Positions 1 to 5,143 of a DNA stretch of 64,000 nucleotides are shown here, piece by piece. Source of the DNA: Candidatus Saccharimonadota bacterium (GTDB taxonomy: Bacteria > Patescibacteriota > Saccharimonadia > Saccharimonadales > JACDBH01). The notes beneath the pieces are model-generated. The model had not been told where the DNA came from and did not search any database. It saw only the letters and a program-made list of their open reading frames with translations. How positions within the stretch are numbered: position 1 is the stretch's first letter; each line of letters begins with the position of its first letter. The position numbers and the translations under genes were made by a program. Location: positions 34,385 to 98,384 of the forward strand of contig JAQGGW010000008.1 in NCBI GenBank assembly GCA_028289135.1, given 5' to 3'.

Positions 1-25
1 AGCTAAACAATATAAGGAGCAAGTA

Positions 26-436
26 ATGGGATACATATTTATTGCCGGCTACATTTTACTGGTAGGTATCGCTACGTTCTTAATGAAGGTCAGCCTAAAA
101 AGTCTTAGCCCATACCAGCTAAATTTCCTGATGGGCATCGGCATGCTTATCACCGGACTTCCAGCACTATTAATCGCTCATAGGTCTTTTAAAATGCCGG
201 TCAAAGAACTGCCGATGGGCATAGTTATTGGCATCATGATGGCCGTAGGCTCTATCCTGTTTGTGCTGGCAATTAACAAACTATCGGCTAGTGTTGCCTC
301 CGTCATGGCAGCAACCTATGTTGGCGTAGTAATTATTCTTTCGTGGCTTTTTCTCAAAGAAAGTTTTGATGCGATTAAGTTAGTTGGTGTTGCTTTAACG
401 TTTATCGGCGCACTGCTACTAACATACAAGGCTTAG
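26..436 (+). CDS. small EamA/DMT-type membrane transporter (half-size, multi-TM)
   Basis: 136-aa ORF made almost entirely of hydrophobic helices. AAGGAG lies 6 nt upstream of the ATG. The layout resembles single-EamA-domain drug/metabolite transporters. Confidence 0.6.
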   Translation: MGYIFIAGYILLVGIATFLMKVSLKSLSPYQLNFLMGIGMLITGLPALLIAHRSFKMPVKELPMGIVIGIMMAVGSILFVLAINKLSASVASVMAATYVGVVIILSWLFLKESFDAIKLVGVALTFIGALLLTYKA

Positions 437-1036
437 TTATAATTCGGCAACAACGCGGGCGGGTGCCCCGTCTAGGCCAAGTTTTATTGGCAAGGCGTAG
501 AGCTTAAACTCTTTACCAATTAGCTGTATCATATTTGTAAGGTTTTCGATGATTAATATATCGTTTCCAAGCAAAATTTTATGTATCGGAAAGTCATCTT
601 TATTATCAACGCTGCAGGCATCAAGCCCTACCATTTTTAGCTTTTTAGTGACGAGGTAATTTGCAACTTCTTCTGACATGACTGGGTAGTTTTCGTAATA
701 GGCTTTATCAAAATATTTATCACTCATTTTTGTGCAAAACAGCACTATTCCGCCTTCTTGAATACCGGCCGTTTTTACTGCGTCAAAACCGTCTGAAACA
801 TCAATGCACTGGGCACTGCCCGCAAAACGATCCAGCTCAAACTTATCCAATGATTTCCCGCTCTCAATCATATGCATAGGCGCGTCAATATGCGTCCCGA
901 CATGCGTACCAACAGAAACGTAGTGGTCACACCAACCATCCTTTGCCAGCACACCAGCGGGCTTGATAGCTGTCTTTGGGTCGCCAGGATAAACGGGCGT
1001 TTGTTCATTTAGCAGGACAGAGAGGTCTATAAACAT
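437..1036 (-). CDS. cyclase-family protein (kynurenine/arylformamidase-like)
   Basis: 199 aa with the motif VGTHVGTHIDAPMHM (HxGTHxDxPxH metal site) and a DxS..D tail, typical of the putative cyclase / formamidase family. Confidence 0.7.
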   Translation of the reverse strand: MFIDLSVLLNEQTPVYPGDPKTAIKPAGVLAKDGWCDHYVSVGTHVGTHIDAPMHMIESGKSLDKFELDRFAGSAQCIDVSDGFDAVKTAGIQEGGIVLFCTKMSDKYFDKAYYENYPVMSEEVANYLVTKKLKMVGLDACSVDNKDDFPIHKILLGNDILIIENLTNMIQLIGKEFKLYALPIKLGLDGAPARVVAEL

Positions 1037-1066
1037 GTTGGTATTGTAGCAAACGCTTGCTGCTAT

Positions 1067-1582
1067 TTAATCGATTTGTATAATCCCTAAAAGAGCTTCC
1101 ATTTTGTTTGTTGAATCAATAAATGCGAACCCATCATCTTTGATATCTTCACGCCCCTCGTATTTATGCGTTACTTGCTGCATTTGATTGGCATCATAAA
1201 TCATCACGATGTCGATACGGACTGGGTAGCCATGGATGGCTTTGGCGCTGTGATAAAAACCCCATACTATTTTAGAAAAAACTTCACTTCCGGGCGTGAT
1301 AGTTTCGGGGAATGCGAAAAGGTCGATATGCTTGCCTTCTACATTTTCGTACCTATCGCCTGTTCTTTGTGGGTCATACCGGTCTGTACCAGTTTTCTGG
1401 ATTATCTCAACAAGTTCATCAACGGTTTTACCTTGGTGTTCAGATGATGCTACACCGCGTACCAAAATTGATTTGCCCATAAAGTTTTTCTTTAATTCGT
1501 CGTCAACTATTTTCCCAATAGCTTTGTCGTCCGGCTCAGAATCAACGGTATATTGCGGGATATTTAACTTGATGAGCTTCAT
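1067..1582 (-). CDS. hypothetical protein
   Basis: 171-aa ORF with balanced, protein-like composition. The overlapping plus-strand ORFs look like antisense shadows. No recognisable motif. Confidence 0.5.
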   Translation of the reverse strand: MKLIKLNIPQYTVDSEPDDKAIGKIVDDELKKNFMGKSILVRGVASSEHQGKTVDELVEIIQKTGTDRYDPQRTGDRYENVEGKHIDLFAFPETITPGSEVFSKIVWGFYHSAKAIHGYPVRIDIVMIYDANQMQQVTHKYEGREDIKDDGFAFIDSTNKMEALLGIIQID

Positions 1583-1632
1583 GACATCATCATAGCAAAT
1601 GTTTAAATCCAGTTAGCATGGCCTTACAAGGC

Positions 1633-2253
1633 TTAACCACCGCAGCCACAAGATGTATATTTCTTGTATGACACATGGCTTAAATCTACTGCTTGCATAG
1701 AATCAAAGACTTGGTCCCAATTGTAATCAAGATATTTAACTATAACAGAGTCATTTACCTGAATATTAATATCGGTTTTTCCCTCAGTCCAGCTAAGCTC
1801 CAGGCCGAATGGCTTGCTATTATAATTGTTATACCAAATGCGGTATGAGCGACCTTTGGGTGTTTGGTGGATAGCGCAAAATCCACCATAGCCCCGGCAA
1901 GTTACCGTATCAGGTGCTGAGTCCGTCTTTTGGTTTTCATTAATTGTTAAGTCCTTACTGTTTAGCAATAATGAGTAGTGAAAGTCCCAGATATCCATAC
2001 CGGGAATATGTTGCCTGGTTAATGATTGCCCTGTGATTTTAATATTGTTAGGCAATACGGTAGGTCTGTAGCCTGCAAAACCCGGATGCGCAGGGGCGCC
2101 GAAACCAACGTAGGTGTCGTACATAAAAAACGAGATAACTACGACTATCAAGGTTAATATAGCCACGGCAGTCCATATAATAATCTTAGTGGGCTTTTTT
2201 AGTTGTTTAAATCTAGATAGTAACTTCATTTGGCTAAATTTCTCCGGCTTCAA
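1633..2253 (-). CDS. hypothetical N-terminally membrane-anchored protein
   Basis: 206 aa with a basic N-terminus followed by one TM helix (IIIWTAVAILTLIVVVISFFMY). The extracytoplasmic domain ends in ...SCGCGG. No family recognised. Confidence 0.5.
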   Translation of the reverse strand: MKPEKFSQMKLLSRFKQLKKPTKIIIWTAVAILTLIVVVISFFMYDTYVGFGAPAHPGFAGYRPTVLPNNIKITGQSLTRQHIPGMDIWDFHYSLLLNSKDLTINENQKTDSAPDTVTCRGYGGFCAIHQTPKGRSYRIWYNNYNSKPFGLELSWTEGKTDINIQVNDSVIVKYLDYNWDQVFDSMQAVDLSHVSYKKYTSCGCGG

Positions 2254-2386
2254 TTAATCTTGGGTCTATTTGCATACCTTAATCTTAGCAGTTGTATATT
2301 CGGGATTGGGTAACCCTTCGTGTCTATGGTCCATGCCGTACAATGAAGCCGTATGCCAAAGAGTTAAAAACTGCCCAAAATTAGAA

Positions 2387-2406
2387 GAACACCCCGAAGA
2401 GTGTTC
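2387..2406 (-). terminator. candidate intrinsic terminator downstream of the DUF3800 gene
   Basis: On the minus strand GAACACTC-TTCG-GGGTGTTC forms an 8-bp stem (one G.U) with a UUCG loop, followed by TTCTAATTTTGG. The plus-strand version has a C/A mismatch, which favours minus-strand function. Confidence 0.55.
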
Positions 2407-2497
2407 GTTGTTGCGTCCGTGTTAGTAATAAATTACTAAACTCGTTCGGCTTACACTACTGATATTATACAGAACCATATAATACATTACAAGAACA

Positions 2498-3130
2498 TTA
2501 TTTTCCAAATTTACCAACTGGGAACTCAATGATCTCCTCTATTCTTGGAGCAACAATGCTTAAAAGGTGTTTGTTATTATCGGCATACCTCCTGTAAGCC
2601 ACATGAGTTAAAAGATCAGCCGCCTGCAGACAATAAACAAGATGCGATTCTTTTCTTTTGACCTCAAGTTTGTGAGTAAATCCCCAATCTACGGCCGCTT
2701 TTATCATAAGGTAATCTGCGATTGAGGTTAGGGAGGTCTGCTTCACGTCTCGTGCATCAAAGGTTATGGTTATGTCATCATTGTACTTTTTAAGTATTCG
2801 TTTTATTAGAACCCCGCTAAGATACATATAGTCCAGGTTAGTACCAAGCCCTGTTTTAAGGTGTTTTTTATCAAGAGCCATGATGAAAATCTCATGATCA
2901 GTTCTTAAGGCAACTTTGTTAAGCAACGTTTGTAGCTGCTCAAAGGACAAACTGCTACTTTTAATTTCTCTAAGAGGAATACCGTCTTCGCTAAATTTTA
3001 AACATGCTTTTTTGAAGATTCTTTTGAGTCTTTCCTTTGAATGCGGCTCGGAACAAACCACAGCAGAAATAATAAAATATTTCCCTCGCTTCCCTTGGTT
3101 GCCTGACTCATCAATAAATACTTCAATCAT
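2498..3130 (-). CDS. DUF3800-family protein
   Basis: 210 aa starting MIEVFIDESGN..., the characteristic N-terminal DExG motif of DUF3800 proteins. It lies in a visibly AT-rich patch. Confidence 0.7.
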   Translation of the reverse strand: MIEVFIDESGNQGKRGKYFIISAVVCSEPHSKERLKRIFKKACLKFSEDGIPLREIKSSSLSFEQLQTLLNKVALRTDHEIFIMALDKKHLKTGLGTNLDYMYLSGVLIKRILKKYNDDITITFDARDVKQTSLTSIADYLMIKAAVDWGFTHKLEVKRKESHLVYCLQAADLLTHVAYRRYADNNKHLLSIVAPRIEEIIEFPVGKFGK

Positions 3131-3253
3131 TAAAATATTATACCATATGCATTATTATCATAATTTTGTTTATAACGCACTCAAAAAAATTTATGTTATA
3201 ATATTATTTACAGATTAAATAAGTTAAAAAAACACATTTTATAATATACTTTT

Positions 3254-3417
3254 AGGACTGAGCAGGCCATGTATCTGTGCGCCGAGTGGACTCGGGCACG
3301 AGACTCATGAACGAACTCAGCGACCTTATCCCGCCTTTGGCGGGACGGTCGACAGTTTCGGGACCAGCCCAGAAGCCAAAGAAAAAGACCCACCTTTCGG
3401 TGAGTCTTTTTCTTTGG
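3254..3417 (+). ncRNA. candidate structured RNA, copy 1 (unknown class), ending in a terminator
   Basis: Nested stems: 3258-3262/3316-3320, 3268-3271/3306-3309 and 3277-3286/3291-3299. A second hairpin pairs 3321-3325/3347-3351 and 3329-3335/3339-3345. A terminator hairpin follows. It is homologous to 3765-3926 with compensatory changes. TATAAT at 3240-3245 would place a start near 3253-3254. Confidence 0.4.
3376..3417. terminator. bidirectional intrinsic terminator-like hairpin
   Basis: CCAAAGAAAAAGAC..GTCTTTTTCTTTGG: an A-tract, a GC core (GACCCACC-TTTC-GGTGAGTC, one mismatch) and a T-tract. It reads as stem plus U-run on both strands. Confidence 0.6.
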
Positions 3418-3445
3418 CTCTCGGTAGTGGACGACGTTAGAACTA

Positions 3446-3715
3446 CTATTCTGGATGTTGTTCATGTCTAAATATGTTTGTGACCGTTGCGATGTGTGTT
3501 GGGGCGGGGCTTATTTCCGGTTCCGTATTTCTAAACGGACAGCTTAAACAGCCCAGAGCATTAGCTATAGTAAGCATCTTATCATTGGTATCAAAATCTA
3601 GAGGAATTAAATCCACACCTTCCGGAAATCTCATGCACTTAAATAATGGTCCGTTTTCCATTGTTCGATTCGGACAATTACGTAGCGCCTTAAGTGCTTT
3701 CCTATCTTCAAACAT
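3446..3715 (-). CDS. hypothetical small Cys-containing protein (start uncertain)
   Basis: The ORF track gives 3446..3784. The internal Met (MFEDRKALKALRNCPNRT...) avoids overlap with RNA-like copy 2. Composition is more protein-like than the antisense 3474..3740 ORF. There is no SD and no family. Confidence 0.3.
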   Translation of the reverse strand: MFEDRKALKALRNCPNRTMENGPLFKCMRFPEGVDLIPLDFDTNDKMLTIANALGCLSCPFRNTEPEISPAPTHIATVTNIFRHEQHPE

Positions 3716-3755
3716 AAAACAAAAAATACCACAAAAGTGATATTTTGTAAAGTCC

Positions 3756-3774
3756 TTGGCTCGGGGGACTGGGC
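3756..3774. repeat. 19-nt exact duplicate of the tRNA-Asn 3' end (att-like direct repeat)
   Basis: ttggctcgggggactgggc at 3756-3774 is identical to 3923-3941. That span is the complement of the last 16 nt of tRNA-Asn, its encoded CCA, and one flanking nt. Confidence 0.8.
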
Positions 3775-3926
3775 AAGGCGGCAAATCTGTGCGCCGAGAG
3801 GCTCGGGCACGAGACTTGCCAACGAACCTAGCGACCTTAAATTTTGCCAGAGCAAAATTTGGTCGCTGGTCGGGCCAATCTCAGAGCCAAATAAAAACCA
3901 CCTCCGGAGAGGTGGATTTTATTTGG
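3765..3926 (+). ncRNA. candidate structured RNA, copy 2 (paralog of 3254-3417)
   Basis: Same architecture as copy 1: stems 3769-3773/3827-3831 (contains a G.U that would be A/C on the minus strand), 3780-3784/3816-3820 and 3789-3798/3802-3810. The second hairpin pairs 3830-3838/3861-3867 around AAATTTTGC/GCAAAATTT. A terminator lies at 3887-3926. Confidence 0.4.
3887..3926. terminator. bidirectional intrinsic terminator between RNA-like copy 2 and tRNA-Asn
   Basis: CCAAATAAAA-A-CCACCTC-CGGA-GAGGTGG-A-TTTTATTTGG: a perfect 7-bp GC core flanked by complementary A and T tracts. It abuts the 3' end of the tRNA. Confidence 0.7.
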
Positions 3927-3998
3927 CTCGGGGGACTGGGCTCGAACCAGCGACCTAGACGTTAACAGCGTCCCGCTCTACCACTGAGCTACCCCCGA
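3924..3998 (-). tRNA. tRNA-Asn (anticodon GTT) with encoded CCA
   Basis: The reverse complement reads TCGGGGG-TA-GCTC-AGTGGTA-GAGC-G-GGACG-CTGTTAA-CGTCT-AGGTC-GCTGG-TTCGAGC-CCAGT-CCCCCGA-G-CCA. This is a full cloverleaf with a GTT anticodon. Confidence 0.9.
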
Positions 3999-4129
3999 TT
4001 ATACCGCTTTTGCTTGCCGGCAGTTACAACAAGTTACAGAGAGAGATTATAGTTCCTTATCTGTAAATCGTCAATCTGTTTTATGGGACATACTTGCAAT
4101 TATATGCTTTTTATTTTAAAATCTATATT

Positions 4130-4666
4130 ATGATTCATTTGCCTGAGTTTAACTATGTTGGCATTGGAGCCAATAGTGAAGCCGAGATGATAGAGGCAAT
4201 TACCGGTATGCCGCCTCTTAGAATTGGCCAGGCAGCCATTGTTGCAAACGTTGAGCTATGCACTCAAACTATCAAAGAAATCCCGTCCACACCTCCTACG
4301 CCTGGTATGCCTTCAGCCGTTGATGTTTTGACGCGCGGCTGGGGTGAAGATATAAATATGGATAAGTTTGAAGCTTATACGCCAAGACAAATACGGTGGG
4401 CTACAACAAAAGGAACACTTTTTGCGCTAGAACGTGAAGCCTTGGATGCTGTTTGGAATTGGCAGCTAGTCGAATTTGATTGGTTTGAGCCAGTAAGGGT
4501 AGAAGCAGCCCCTGTTACGCGCGGGGAAAGCATACAGGTTTGGACTGAGTTAATTAAAGGAAACCAACCGGTAGCTAGGACCCCTGACGGCAGGAACTAC
4601 CGCCCCTACTTGATGGGTGAAAAGTTAACGCTCGCAAAAGCTGTAAAAGCCCGCTTAGCTGCTTAA
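4130..4666 (+). CDS. hypothetical protein
   Basis: The ORF track starts at a TTG (4094); the ATG at 4130 (MIHLPEFNYVG...) is more plausible. It is Trp-rich, soluble-looking, and has no recognisable family. Confidence 0.5.
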   Translation: MIHLPEFNYVGIGANSEAEMIEAITGMPPLRIGQAAIVANVELCTQTIKEIPSTPPTPGMPSAVDVLTRGWGEDINMDKFEAYTPRQIRWATTKGTLFALEREALDAVWNWQLVEFDWFEPVRVEAAPVTRGESIQVWTELIKGNQPVARTPDGRNYRPYLMGEKLTLAKAVKARLAA

Positions 4667-4672
4667 AACTAG

Positions 4673-5143
4673 TTAACTTTCTGAACCCGCAATCGGCGCG
4701 TTTTCCTTAACCAAAGTAAGCCGTGGCACTAGTGCGCGCACAGCATCGTCAAGACCAAGTACGTGCAGCGCGCCGATTAATACATAGGCATCGTCCATCT
4801 TTTTGGCGGCCGGGGCGGTACTGGCTTCAAGCTCTGCCAGCACGGCGTGGACTTGCTCAACCAACCACTTAGCCTCATGCTCCAAGATCGACGCCGCTTT
4901 GTCGCCAAGGCCCAGCTCAACACCAACGACTTCCAAAGACCGCGCCGAACGGTCGCGCTTGCGCAGATGCCCGCGTTTGATCAAATTGTTAACATGAAGC
5001 GCAACAGTCGCAACAGAGGTGTAGCCAAGCCCGTTCATGATTTCACGATAGCTGGGACTATAACCATTTTCTTTGATAAAAGACTCAATAAAGCCCAAAA
5101 GTTCACGCTGTTTTTTGGTTGGCCGAACGGTATTTGGATCCAT
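4673..5143 (-). CDS. LexA-N-terminal-like winged-helix transcriptional regulator lacking the S24 peptidase domain
   Basis: From Met39 of the ORF: MDPNTVRPTKKQRELLGFIESFIKENGYSPSYREIMNGLGYTSVATVALHVNNLIKRGHLRK matches the LexA DNA-binding domain pattern. The C-terminal ~80 aa are helical with no Ser/Lys protease motifs. A start at 5143 abuts the gtrA-like stop at 5145. Confidence 0.6.
   Translation of the reverse strand: MDPNTVRPTKKQRELLGFIESFIKENGYSPSYREIMNGLGYTSVATVALHVNNLIKRGHLRKRDRSARSLEVVGVELGLGDKAASILEHEAKWLVEQVHAVLAELEASTAPAAKKMDDAYVLIGALHVLGLDDAVRALVPRLTLVKENAPIAGSES

Follow-up and report, generated by a model that had tools for sequence, protein, structure and literature searches.

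Two tRNA-Asn-derived structured elements and a lineage-restricted module family at the tRNA-Asn 3' flank of Candidatus Saccharibacteria

The tRNA-Asn locus and its two paralogous elements

The window analyzed here is a stretch of 64 kb from a Candidatus Saccharibacteria metagenome-assembled genome (locus tags JWO47_939-942). It contains a gene for tRNA-Asn (GTT; 3924-3998, minus strand), which was called by ARAGORN and matched by the Rfam tRNA model with 67 bits. Beside this gene are two structured elements, E1 (3254-3417) and E2 (3765-3926), with a small open reading frame (ORF), p89, between them. The strand that encodes the tRNA, which is the minus strand of the window, is referred to as the tRNA-sense strand. 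Both elements are built from the tRNA gene, which is their source and their anchor, and they belong to a module family that is also found at tRNA-Asn in related genomes.

A sequence-only reading of the window had described E1 and E2 as paralogous, and they align with 79% column identity. A third copy was not found within the 64-kb window. Several details of that description were confirmed: a 4-bp stem is exchanged as a whole (CATG/CATG in E1 versus GGCA/TGCC in E2), the outer stem differs (CTGAG/CTCAG versus CTGGG/CCTAG), and the apex of the second hairpin is wholly exchanged between the copies. The outer stem corresponds to the T stem of a tRNA-like copy. Four shared blocks, reported as single-stranded, are indeed present in both copies, but blocks 1 and 2 are mutually paired and form a conserved hairpin (Hc). 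A bidirectional terminator hairpin adjoins each element, as had been stated, and that of E2 is the terminator of tRNA-Asn. Both strands of both elements fold far more stably than shuffled sequences (z -7.5 to -10.4).

The absence of a match to any known RNA family was also borne out. Rfam 15 gives tRNA-Asn alone, both at the gathering threshold and at E<=10, the latter otherwise returning hairpin-like miRNA or leader noise in the window region and likewise for the related locus L038 (see below). A coding function was rejected: the loop between the conserved blocks differs by 1 nt (TGGA versus AGG), and the substitutions are paired stem changes.

Derivation of the elements from tRNA-Asn

The elements had been considered independent of the tRNA. 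This does not hold, as each of them is made up of the tRNA-Asn 3' half in two copies, one inverted and one direct. The term core is used for the 18 nt at the end of tRNA-Asn (GCCCAGUCCCCCGAGCCA). Directly before E2, the 19 nt TTGGCTCGGGGGACTGGGC at 3756-3774 are an exact repeat of the tRNA-Asn 3' end (3923-3941). They comprise the direct repeat of the core (core C; 3757-3774, minus strand; 19 nt with the flanking A), which closes unit 2. On the minus strand, E2 reads ...UUAAGGUCGCUAGGUUCGUU-(41-nt hairpin)-GCCUUGCCCAGUCCCCCGAGCCA. Apart from the hairpin, which interrupts the T-loop, this is the order of the tRNA: variable loop, T arm, then the 3' strand of the acceptor with CCA. The T-loop and T-stem/variable-loop sequence of tRNA-Asn (GUUCGUU and UAAGGUCGCU) is complementary to the blocks AACGAAC and AGCGACCTTA. 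What remains of each element corresponds, in reverse complement, to the same tRNA 3' half; the match covers 24 of 31-33 positions, a score attained by 0-2 of 1000 shuffles.

In the tRNA-sense direction, a unit consists of a long bidirectional terminator, an arm L, a variable apical hairpin (Hv), an arm R with, usually, Hc in its T-loop, and a core. Arm R corresponds to the variable loop and T arm of the tRNA, and the core repeats the final 17-18 nt of the resident tRNA, for E2 exactly and over 18 nt.

(a) Unit 2 begins with T2, the bidirectional intrinsic terminator of tRNA-Asn (3885-3928), whose extended stem (AGCCAAAU...AUUUGGCU) incorporates the tRNA 3' end. Arm L of E2 (3861-3889, minus strand; GGCUCUGAGAUUGGCCCGACCAGCGACC) was found by blastn as an inverted copy of the tRNA-Asn 3' half; it is identical at 24 of 31 positions to the reverse complement of tRNA positions 43-75 (0 of 1000 shuffles). 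It is followed by Hv (3839-3860; AAAUUUUGC/GCAAAAUUU), as seen by sequence and folding, and by the 5' part of arm R (3821-3838, minus strand; UUAAGGUCGCUAGGUUCGUU), which equals the variable loop, the 5' strand of the T-stem and the start of the T-loop. Hc (3780-3820) occupies the T-loop position and was delineated by alignment and covariation. In E2, it is composed of the outer 4-bp stem (GGCA/UGCC), an A-U pair, GUCU/AGAU with an invariant G.U as its first pair, a C bulge, GUGC/GCAC, a further C bulge, CCGAG/CUCGG and a 3-nt loop.

(b) Unit 1 has the same order. Its terminator T1 (3374-3419; bidirectional, extended stem AGCCAAAG...CUUUGGCU) is the ortholog of the tRNA-Asn terminator from the related locus L027, with which it has the loop GAAA and the stem CUCAC(C)/(G)GUGGG in common. 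Arm L of E1 (3347-3378, minus strand), an inverted tRNA-Asn 3' half, is identical at 24 of 33 positions (1 of 1000 shuffles as high) and is followed by Hv (3329-3345; UCCCGCC/GGCGGGA) and Hc (3268-3309; outer stem CAUG/CAUG). The unit ends with a decayed core-like sequence (A; 3254-3267, minus strand). In A, GCUCAGUCCU inside GCCUGCUCAGUCCU is the counterpart of the tRNA sequence GCCCAGUCCC, and GCCU is a linker. A C-to-U change in A completes the T-like stem.

(c) The terminator stems (AGCCAAA...UUUGGCU) borrow the preceding ...GAGCCA end. Before E2, this is the end of the real tRNA; before E1, it is a degenerate tRNA-Asn 3' end (GUCCACUACCGAGAGCCA; B; 3415-3432, minus strand), which precedes T1 and was detected by local alignment. 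The similarity of B is weak (score 20 versus 14 +/- 2.5 for shuffles, of which 14 of 500 score as high; p ~0.03). B is at the position where L027 has its true tRNA end and, judged from the sequence, it is probably a displaced older tRNA 3' end.

A complete tRNA pseudogene with a T-loop insert was considered and rejected, since the 5' half of the element is closer to the tRNA 3' half in reverse complement than to the tRNA 5' half. ARAGORN and Rfam call only the true tRNA-Asn and neither of the elements as tRNA or tmRNA.

Copies in related genomes

For a comparison with relatives, the LexA-like neighbor gene was used as a synteny anchor, and the tRNA-Asn loci were then compared. Six further copies were detected in four related Saccharibacteria, so that the sample comprises eight copies in five genomes of one lineage, all directly downstream of tRNA-Asn. 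With decreasing identity of the LexA-like protein, one copy is present in L027 (94%), two in L030 (87%), one in L032 (81%) and two, which are directly tandem, in L038 (66%). No module follows tRNA-Asn in L033 (90%, tRNA-Asn identical), L028/29 (89%), L031 (81%) and L061 (58%). In six of seven copies, arm L corresponds to the 3' half of the local tRNA in reverse complement (0-2 of 1000 shuffles as high). An extended terminator of the T2 type precedes each copy in the relatives and is not present at loci that lack the module. Loci retrieved via the LexA homolog P0062 are devoid of tRNA-Asn.

A covariance model trained on five copies was run on both strands of 512 kb of related loci. It recovers five copies at 73-110 bits and the three divergent ones weakly (E 0.2-1.7), without any other match. 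The module family is real, restricted to this lineage and bound to the tRNA-Asn 3' flank, and it varies in presence and copy number.

Searches in wider collections did not extend the family. Exact patterns derived from E1 and E2 returned four matches in GTDB genomes, all by chance and in high-GC organisms, none in JGI metagenomes and, in the IMG/VR scans, 0, 2 (chance), 0 and 3 (within coding sequence). These patterns were too strict and missed the family, because true relatives carry single-base differences in the blocks that had seemed invariant. By blastn, the module has no match in phage and plasmid collections. A lookup of the neighboring proteins by exact identity mostly returned no match.

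Three observations relate to these loci. In L033, about 135 nt after tRNA-Asn (~3810-3835), there is a 20-nt stretch (CTTTTGGGCTGGTTGCGAAC) that resembles arm L of E1 and L027; it may be what is left of a lost unit. The L028 flank downstream of tRNA-Asn (3582-3800) has a pair of direct repeats of ~40 nt each (AGCAAGCAG...GGTTCC(C/T)AGACCTG) around ~170 nt, and by its sequence this pair appears as a different insertion-like feature at the same hot spot. An independent assembly of the window (L001, a contig from Logan SRR13312994) is identical to positions 1-3668 and stops in the spacer between E1 and E2, an end point as expected from a repeat-induced assembly break.

Fold and covariation

The covariation statistics rest on five sequences. 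In their alignment, 93% of the cells are paired, versus 26-39% when the partners are slid. Eight pairs have changes on both sides, and this covariation was reached by none of 500 shuffles. Selection on secondary structure, as proposed from the two copies of the window, is corroborated in that compensatory changes reach into the relatives. Thus, the generic hallmark of a structured non-coding RNA (ncRNA), a secondary structure supported by covariation, is present.

Hc is highly conserved. Five of its pairs change on both sides across the five sequences, and the order of its parts is kept: a variable 4-bp outer stem, A-U, GUCU/AGAU, a bulged C or U, GUGC/GCAC (AUGC/GCAU in the copy L038a, GUGC/GCGC in L027), a bulged C, and CCGAG/CUCGG. 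It has 29 invariant bases against diverging flanks and is ~90% identical between genomes with only 66% identity of the LexA-like protein. At the Hc position, some copies have an alternative, either a short UCCGYC-N4-GGCGGA hairpin (L030a, L038b) or a long unrelated one (L032). The stem GCGACC/GGUCGC is replaced by GGCAACC/GGUUGCC in L038a and by GGUAA/UUACC in L038b. Hv is a perfect hairpin in every copy, with an unrelated sequence each time. Because several helices are mutually exclusive, the exact fold is not settled: arm L can pair with the tRNA-like half on either side, upstream or downstream, and a long-range pairing is in competition with the T-like stem.

Insertion-like context and cargo

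(a) The end repeats mirror the tRNA-Asn of each genome, following three acceptor types with 0-2 mismatches. They are exact over 18-19 nt in the window and over 18 nt in L038, and have 1-2 mismatches in L030 and L032. The units are thus delimited by a tRNA gene on one side and a directly repeated copy of its 3' end on the other, as is typical for tRNA-targeted islands, and occupied as well as empty sites exist among close relatives (L033 is empty and has an identical tRNA; L028, L031 and L061 are also empty). This argues against the free-standing small RNA gene that had been proposed: copies are variably present among close relatives and have repeats of the tRNA 3' end on both sides. In E2 and L038a, exact core repeats enclose a terminator and a body. 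They resemble cis-mobilizable elements, being att-flanked and devoid of recombination genes. In the L032 unit, the T-like stem is GCUGG/CCAGU versus GCCGG/CCGGC in the local tRNA, and identity to this tRNA begins only in the acceptor strand.

(b) Unit 1 of the window is orthologous to the sole unit of L027, terminator included, yet other genes follow. In the window, these are a gene for a DUF3800 protein (2498-3130, minus strand; Pfam), a small-RNA-like unit and p206; in L027, it is p100. Homology restarts 18 nt before the shared p171 gene. The units in L030 are followed by a leucine-rich repeat (LRR) protein and p134, that in L032 by an HTH_17 excisionase-like protein and an apparent HD-domain ORF (assigned by eye), the contig ending 360 nt past the HTH_17 ORF. 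The cargo is accessory in type (DUF3800, LRR, HTH_17 excisionase-like).

(c) The ORF p89 between the units (89 aa; 3446-3715, minus strand; ORF call) is a possible cargo gene. Pfam gives no match, and only three weak relatives were found among 1.84 billion representative proteins. That it might be a DUF3800 fragment was checked and rejected, the sequences being unrelated. It is preceded by the promoter-like TTTACA-17-TATTTT (with TG; 3751-3723), which would yield a leaderless mRNA. Upstream of both p89 (3713-3751) and the DUF3800 gene (3130-3160), a -10-like hexamer on the minus strand ends about 6-7 nt before the ATG, which suggests that both mRNAs are leaderless.

(d) An orphan protein of 190 aa is encoded between the LexA-like gene and tRNA-Asn (4094-4666, plus strand). 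It has no Pfam family, and a protein search returned only itself; tblastn revealed a single relative, in L027 (6468-7031, 53% identity). Both genomes that code for this protein carry an E1-type unit.

A cassette end module as the preferred reading

Our preferred reading, which we hold tentatively and with slightly less than even confidence, is that E1 and E2 represent a tRNA-Asn-derived, structure-selected end module of small cassettes, which insert at the T-loop/3' end of tRNA-Asn with a recombinase provided in trans. Units would arise through site-specific recombination in this region, each insertion supplying a new tRNA end and a new terminator while displacing the old end. The recombinase would act in trans, as with tandem islands targeted to tRNA or tmRNA genes and with cis-mobilizable elements. 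Selection would act on a folded single strand, either a read-through RNA from the tRNA promoter or single-stranded DNA (ssDNA), with Hc as a putative protein-recognition site. At the locus analyzed here, E2 and p89 would be the later insertion, by which unit 1 and the older tRNA end (B) were moved outward.

Several points weigh against this reading. No integrase or recombinase was found in gene lists or Pfam scans around any copy (3-10 kb), and no tRNA fragment was seen at the right-hand border of the window cargo. With merely ~150 nt between their repeats, E2 and L038a are too small for an autonomous element. A free copy (attP form) was not found in phage, plasmid and viral collections. Arm L and the tRNA-like 5' part of arm R often follow the local tRNA (as in L038a), which a simple end duplication does not predict. 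Covarying hairpins are not required at a double-stranded att site, so that the reading has to assume a folded form, either RNA or ssDNA. Finally, the sample is restricted to 5-8 sequences from one lineage.

Alternative readings

The closest alternative is a structured ncRNA on the tRNA-sense strand, released by terminator read-through or processing of the tRNA 3' trailer, which would serve as a mimic of the tRNA-Asn 3' half or as an anti-tRNA (decoy, sponge or protein-binding RNA), its link to cassettes being incidental. We regard this as possible but, on balance, unlikely. Covariation backs the fold, and the ~90% identity of Hc between genomes with divergent LexA-like proteins agrees with it. 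The strand evidence leans the same way, favoring the tRNA-sense over the plus strand: one internal G.U (alignment columns 56/89) occurs unchanged in all five sequences, L027 has a U.G in a conserved stem, and the unit bodies are more stable on this strand in seven of seven copies (by 0.8-15 kcal/mol). A strong promoter-like sequence (TTGACG-17-TATAAT; 4074-4046; 11 of 12 consensus positions) lies upstream of the tRNA, and the unit itself ends with ...GAGCCA like the tRNA, its own terminator coming next in L038. However, the strand bias is small when only the core helices are considered (8 G.U and 9 mismatches in sense versus 6 and 11 in antisense). Promoter evidence is weak on both strands, and the unit, read in the tRNA-sense direction, lacks its own promoter and sits behind a strong intrinsic terminator. 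It is also missing from close relatives with the same tRNA, it varies in copy number, and three unrelated hairpin types occur at the Hc position. The ncRNA and cassette readings are compatible, because a cassette module could act as an RNA.

We consider it improbable that the elements are functionless debris, that is, palindromes left by integration scars and by the tRNA 3' half having been duplicated in inverted, fold-back orientation, in which intrastrand template switching maintains complementarity without selection for function. Such an origin would be consistent with palindromes made from the adjacent gene, a patchy distribution and decayed copies (L038b, A, B), and paired changes can be obtained by quasipalindrome correction. 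It is difficult to reconcile with the 29 invariant Hc bases amid diverging flanks, and with the hairpins kept at two positions although their sequence was fully exchanged. Moreover, two single-base bulges and the G.U are retained in all long-type copies, while template-switch correction would remove them.

That E1 and E2 are two free-standing plus-strand small RNAs (sRNAs) of ~165 nt, which start from promoters of their own and stop at a terminator, was the view of the sequence-only reading; we consider it quite doubtful. A TATAAT (3240-3245) is located 8 nt ahead of E1, the extended -10-like TGATATTTT ahead of E2, and a U-tract terminator follows each element on the plus strand, which also folds well (z -7.5 and -8.3). 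Transcribed from the plus strand, E2 would give an antisense RNA to the terminal 18 nt of tRNA-Asn. The promoters, however, are without a -35, neither site passes a promoter scan, and they are not conserved: L038a is enclosed by terminators on both sides, one of them at the required promoter position. The assignment to the plus strand had relied on one G.U in the outer stem of E2 that is specific to this strand. This argument fails because the pair faces an inserted A and because the opposite strand has G.U pairs, too. The invariant G.U and the U.G of L027 would become A.C mismatches on the plus strand, which is the less stable one in all seven copies compared.

DUF3800-associated RNA motifs are diverse, and terminators as well as UAA are frequent among them (Weinberg et al. 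2017, PMC5737381). E1, located 124 nt upstream of the DUF3800 gene, resembles the motifs DUF3800-I to DUF3800-XI (PMC5737381) in that one copy is beside such a gene and in being structured with a terminator hairpin, but that it is a motif of this type acting with the adjacent gene is very improbable and largely refuted by absent co-occurrence, as no Rfam DUF3800 model matches (E<=10), as DUF3800 orthologs (L006, L008, L012, L018) lack the element, as the copies in L027, L030, L032 and L038 lack a nearby DUF3800 gene, and as the travelling companion of this gene is a different small-RNA-like unit.

The DUF3800 gene and its companion

Orthologs of the DUF3800 gene (2498-3130 in the window) from L006, L008, L012 and L018 have 65-80% sequence identity and occupy wholly different gene neighborhoods. 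This is consistent with a mobile gene-plus-RNA cassette. Given the distribution described above, the gene is not specifically linked to E1 and E2.

The small-RNA-like unit that follows the gene (2377-2492, minus strand) accompanies it into the four other neighborhoods (L006, 4640-4750; L008, ~4690-4800; L012, 4640-4750; L018, ~4640-4750). Its promoter (TTGTAA-17-TATAAT) is followed by GUGUAAGCCGRRCG, a hairpin with covariation, ACGNRCGCAAC and finally an intrinsic terminator. Among five sequences, RNAalifold detected four doubly changed pairs, and no Rfam family matches, motifs DUF3800-I to XI included. This is probably an undescribed DUF3800-associated RNA, as far as the sequences tell.

In L006, the gene and its companion are part of a 3-kb island (1842-4916; AAA_21 ATPase, RloB, DUF3800, small-RNA-like unit) that has tRNA-Thr on one side and, on the other, a direct repeat (~60 nt) of the 3' part of this tRNA. 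The island has no integrase and is a further integrase-less, tRNA-anchored cassette in a related Saccharibacteria genome.

Comparison with known systems and significance

Streptococcal CIMEs are cis-mobilizable elements at the 3' ends of tRNA and tmRNA genes. In Dehalococcoides, tandem islands at ssrA have 20-bp end repeats, an insertion point in the T-loop and a conserved motif beside the repeat, and some of their units lack integration genes (PMC3146451). The module shares much with these systems: direct repeats of ~18-20 nt from the end of an RNA gene bound the units, the junction is in the T-loop, units are arranged in tandem and some lack recombination genes, cargo is variable, presence differs between strains, and a conserved motif that is not from the tRNA is immediately upstream of the repeat. 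It differs in that a unit may be just ~170 nt long, in having an additional inverted copy of the tRNA 3' half and hairpins supported by covariation, and in that no recombinase was seen at any of its loci.

Integron attC sites and the attP(+) hairpin of the CTX phage are recombination sites that work as folded single strands. By analogy, the module also keeps structure above sequence, has a variable apical hairpin and conserved extrahelical bases, and has two inverted target-like copies, which would be able to fold as a mimic of a duplex target, with successive cassettes at one site. It is, however, built from a tRNA gene, and there is no evidence for IntI or Xer. The attC boxes RYYYAAC/GTTRRRY are absent (the module reads GTTCGTT/AACGAAC), and no integrase gene is present in the neighborhood within the window. 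It is tempting to speculate, with low confidence, that the module mimics, as a folded single strand, the 3' half of the tRNA-Asn gene, its two inverted target copies placing a bulged hairpin exactly at the T-loop crossover. Integrase-less cassettes might then be captured successively behind tRNA-Asn by a recombinase in trans, on a platform of the candidate phyla radiation (CPR) that is integron-like or resembles CTX and the integrative mobile elements exploiting Xer (IMEX), or the transcribed module might guide recombination.

Two further comparisons concern structure and distribution. tRNA-like structures include the tRNA-like domain of tmRNA, YrlA RNA and viral tRNA-like structures (TLS). 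The module has a T-arm-like segment, an acceptor 3' strand and an encoded CCA in common with them, but it has no cloverleaf, its 5' half is the complement of its 3' half, the T-loop of the window copies is broken by a 41-42-nt hairpin, and ARAGORN and Rfam are silent. Modular intergenic palindromic repeats are exemplified by repetitive extragenic palindromes and bacterial interspersed mosaic elements (REP/BIME), pneumococcal BOX elements and Correia elements. Stacked and interchangeable hairpin modules and nearness to terminators are common to these and to the module, which, however, is not dispersed. Its two copies in the 64 kb of the window are both at tRNA-Asn, and it was found only behind tRNA-Asn in the 512 kb of related loci, in contrast to dispersed REP elements or miniature inverted-repeat transposable elements (MITEs).

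When a novel structured RNA is called beside a tRNA gene, its derivation from that tRNA should be checked first. If the module acts as an RNA, it would be an unusual tRNA-derived ncRNA, with one half antisense to the tRNA and the other half its mimic. Saccharibacteria and other CPR bacteria have tiny genomes with few recognizable mobile elements, and their acquisition of accessory and defense genes is poorly understood. A tRNA-built module that recurs at the borders of variable cassettes without a nearby integrase provides a testable handle on cassette capture in CPR.

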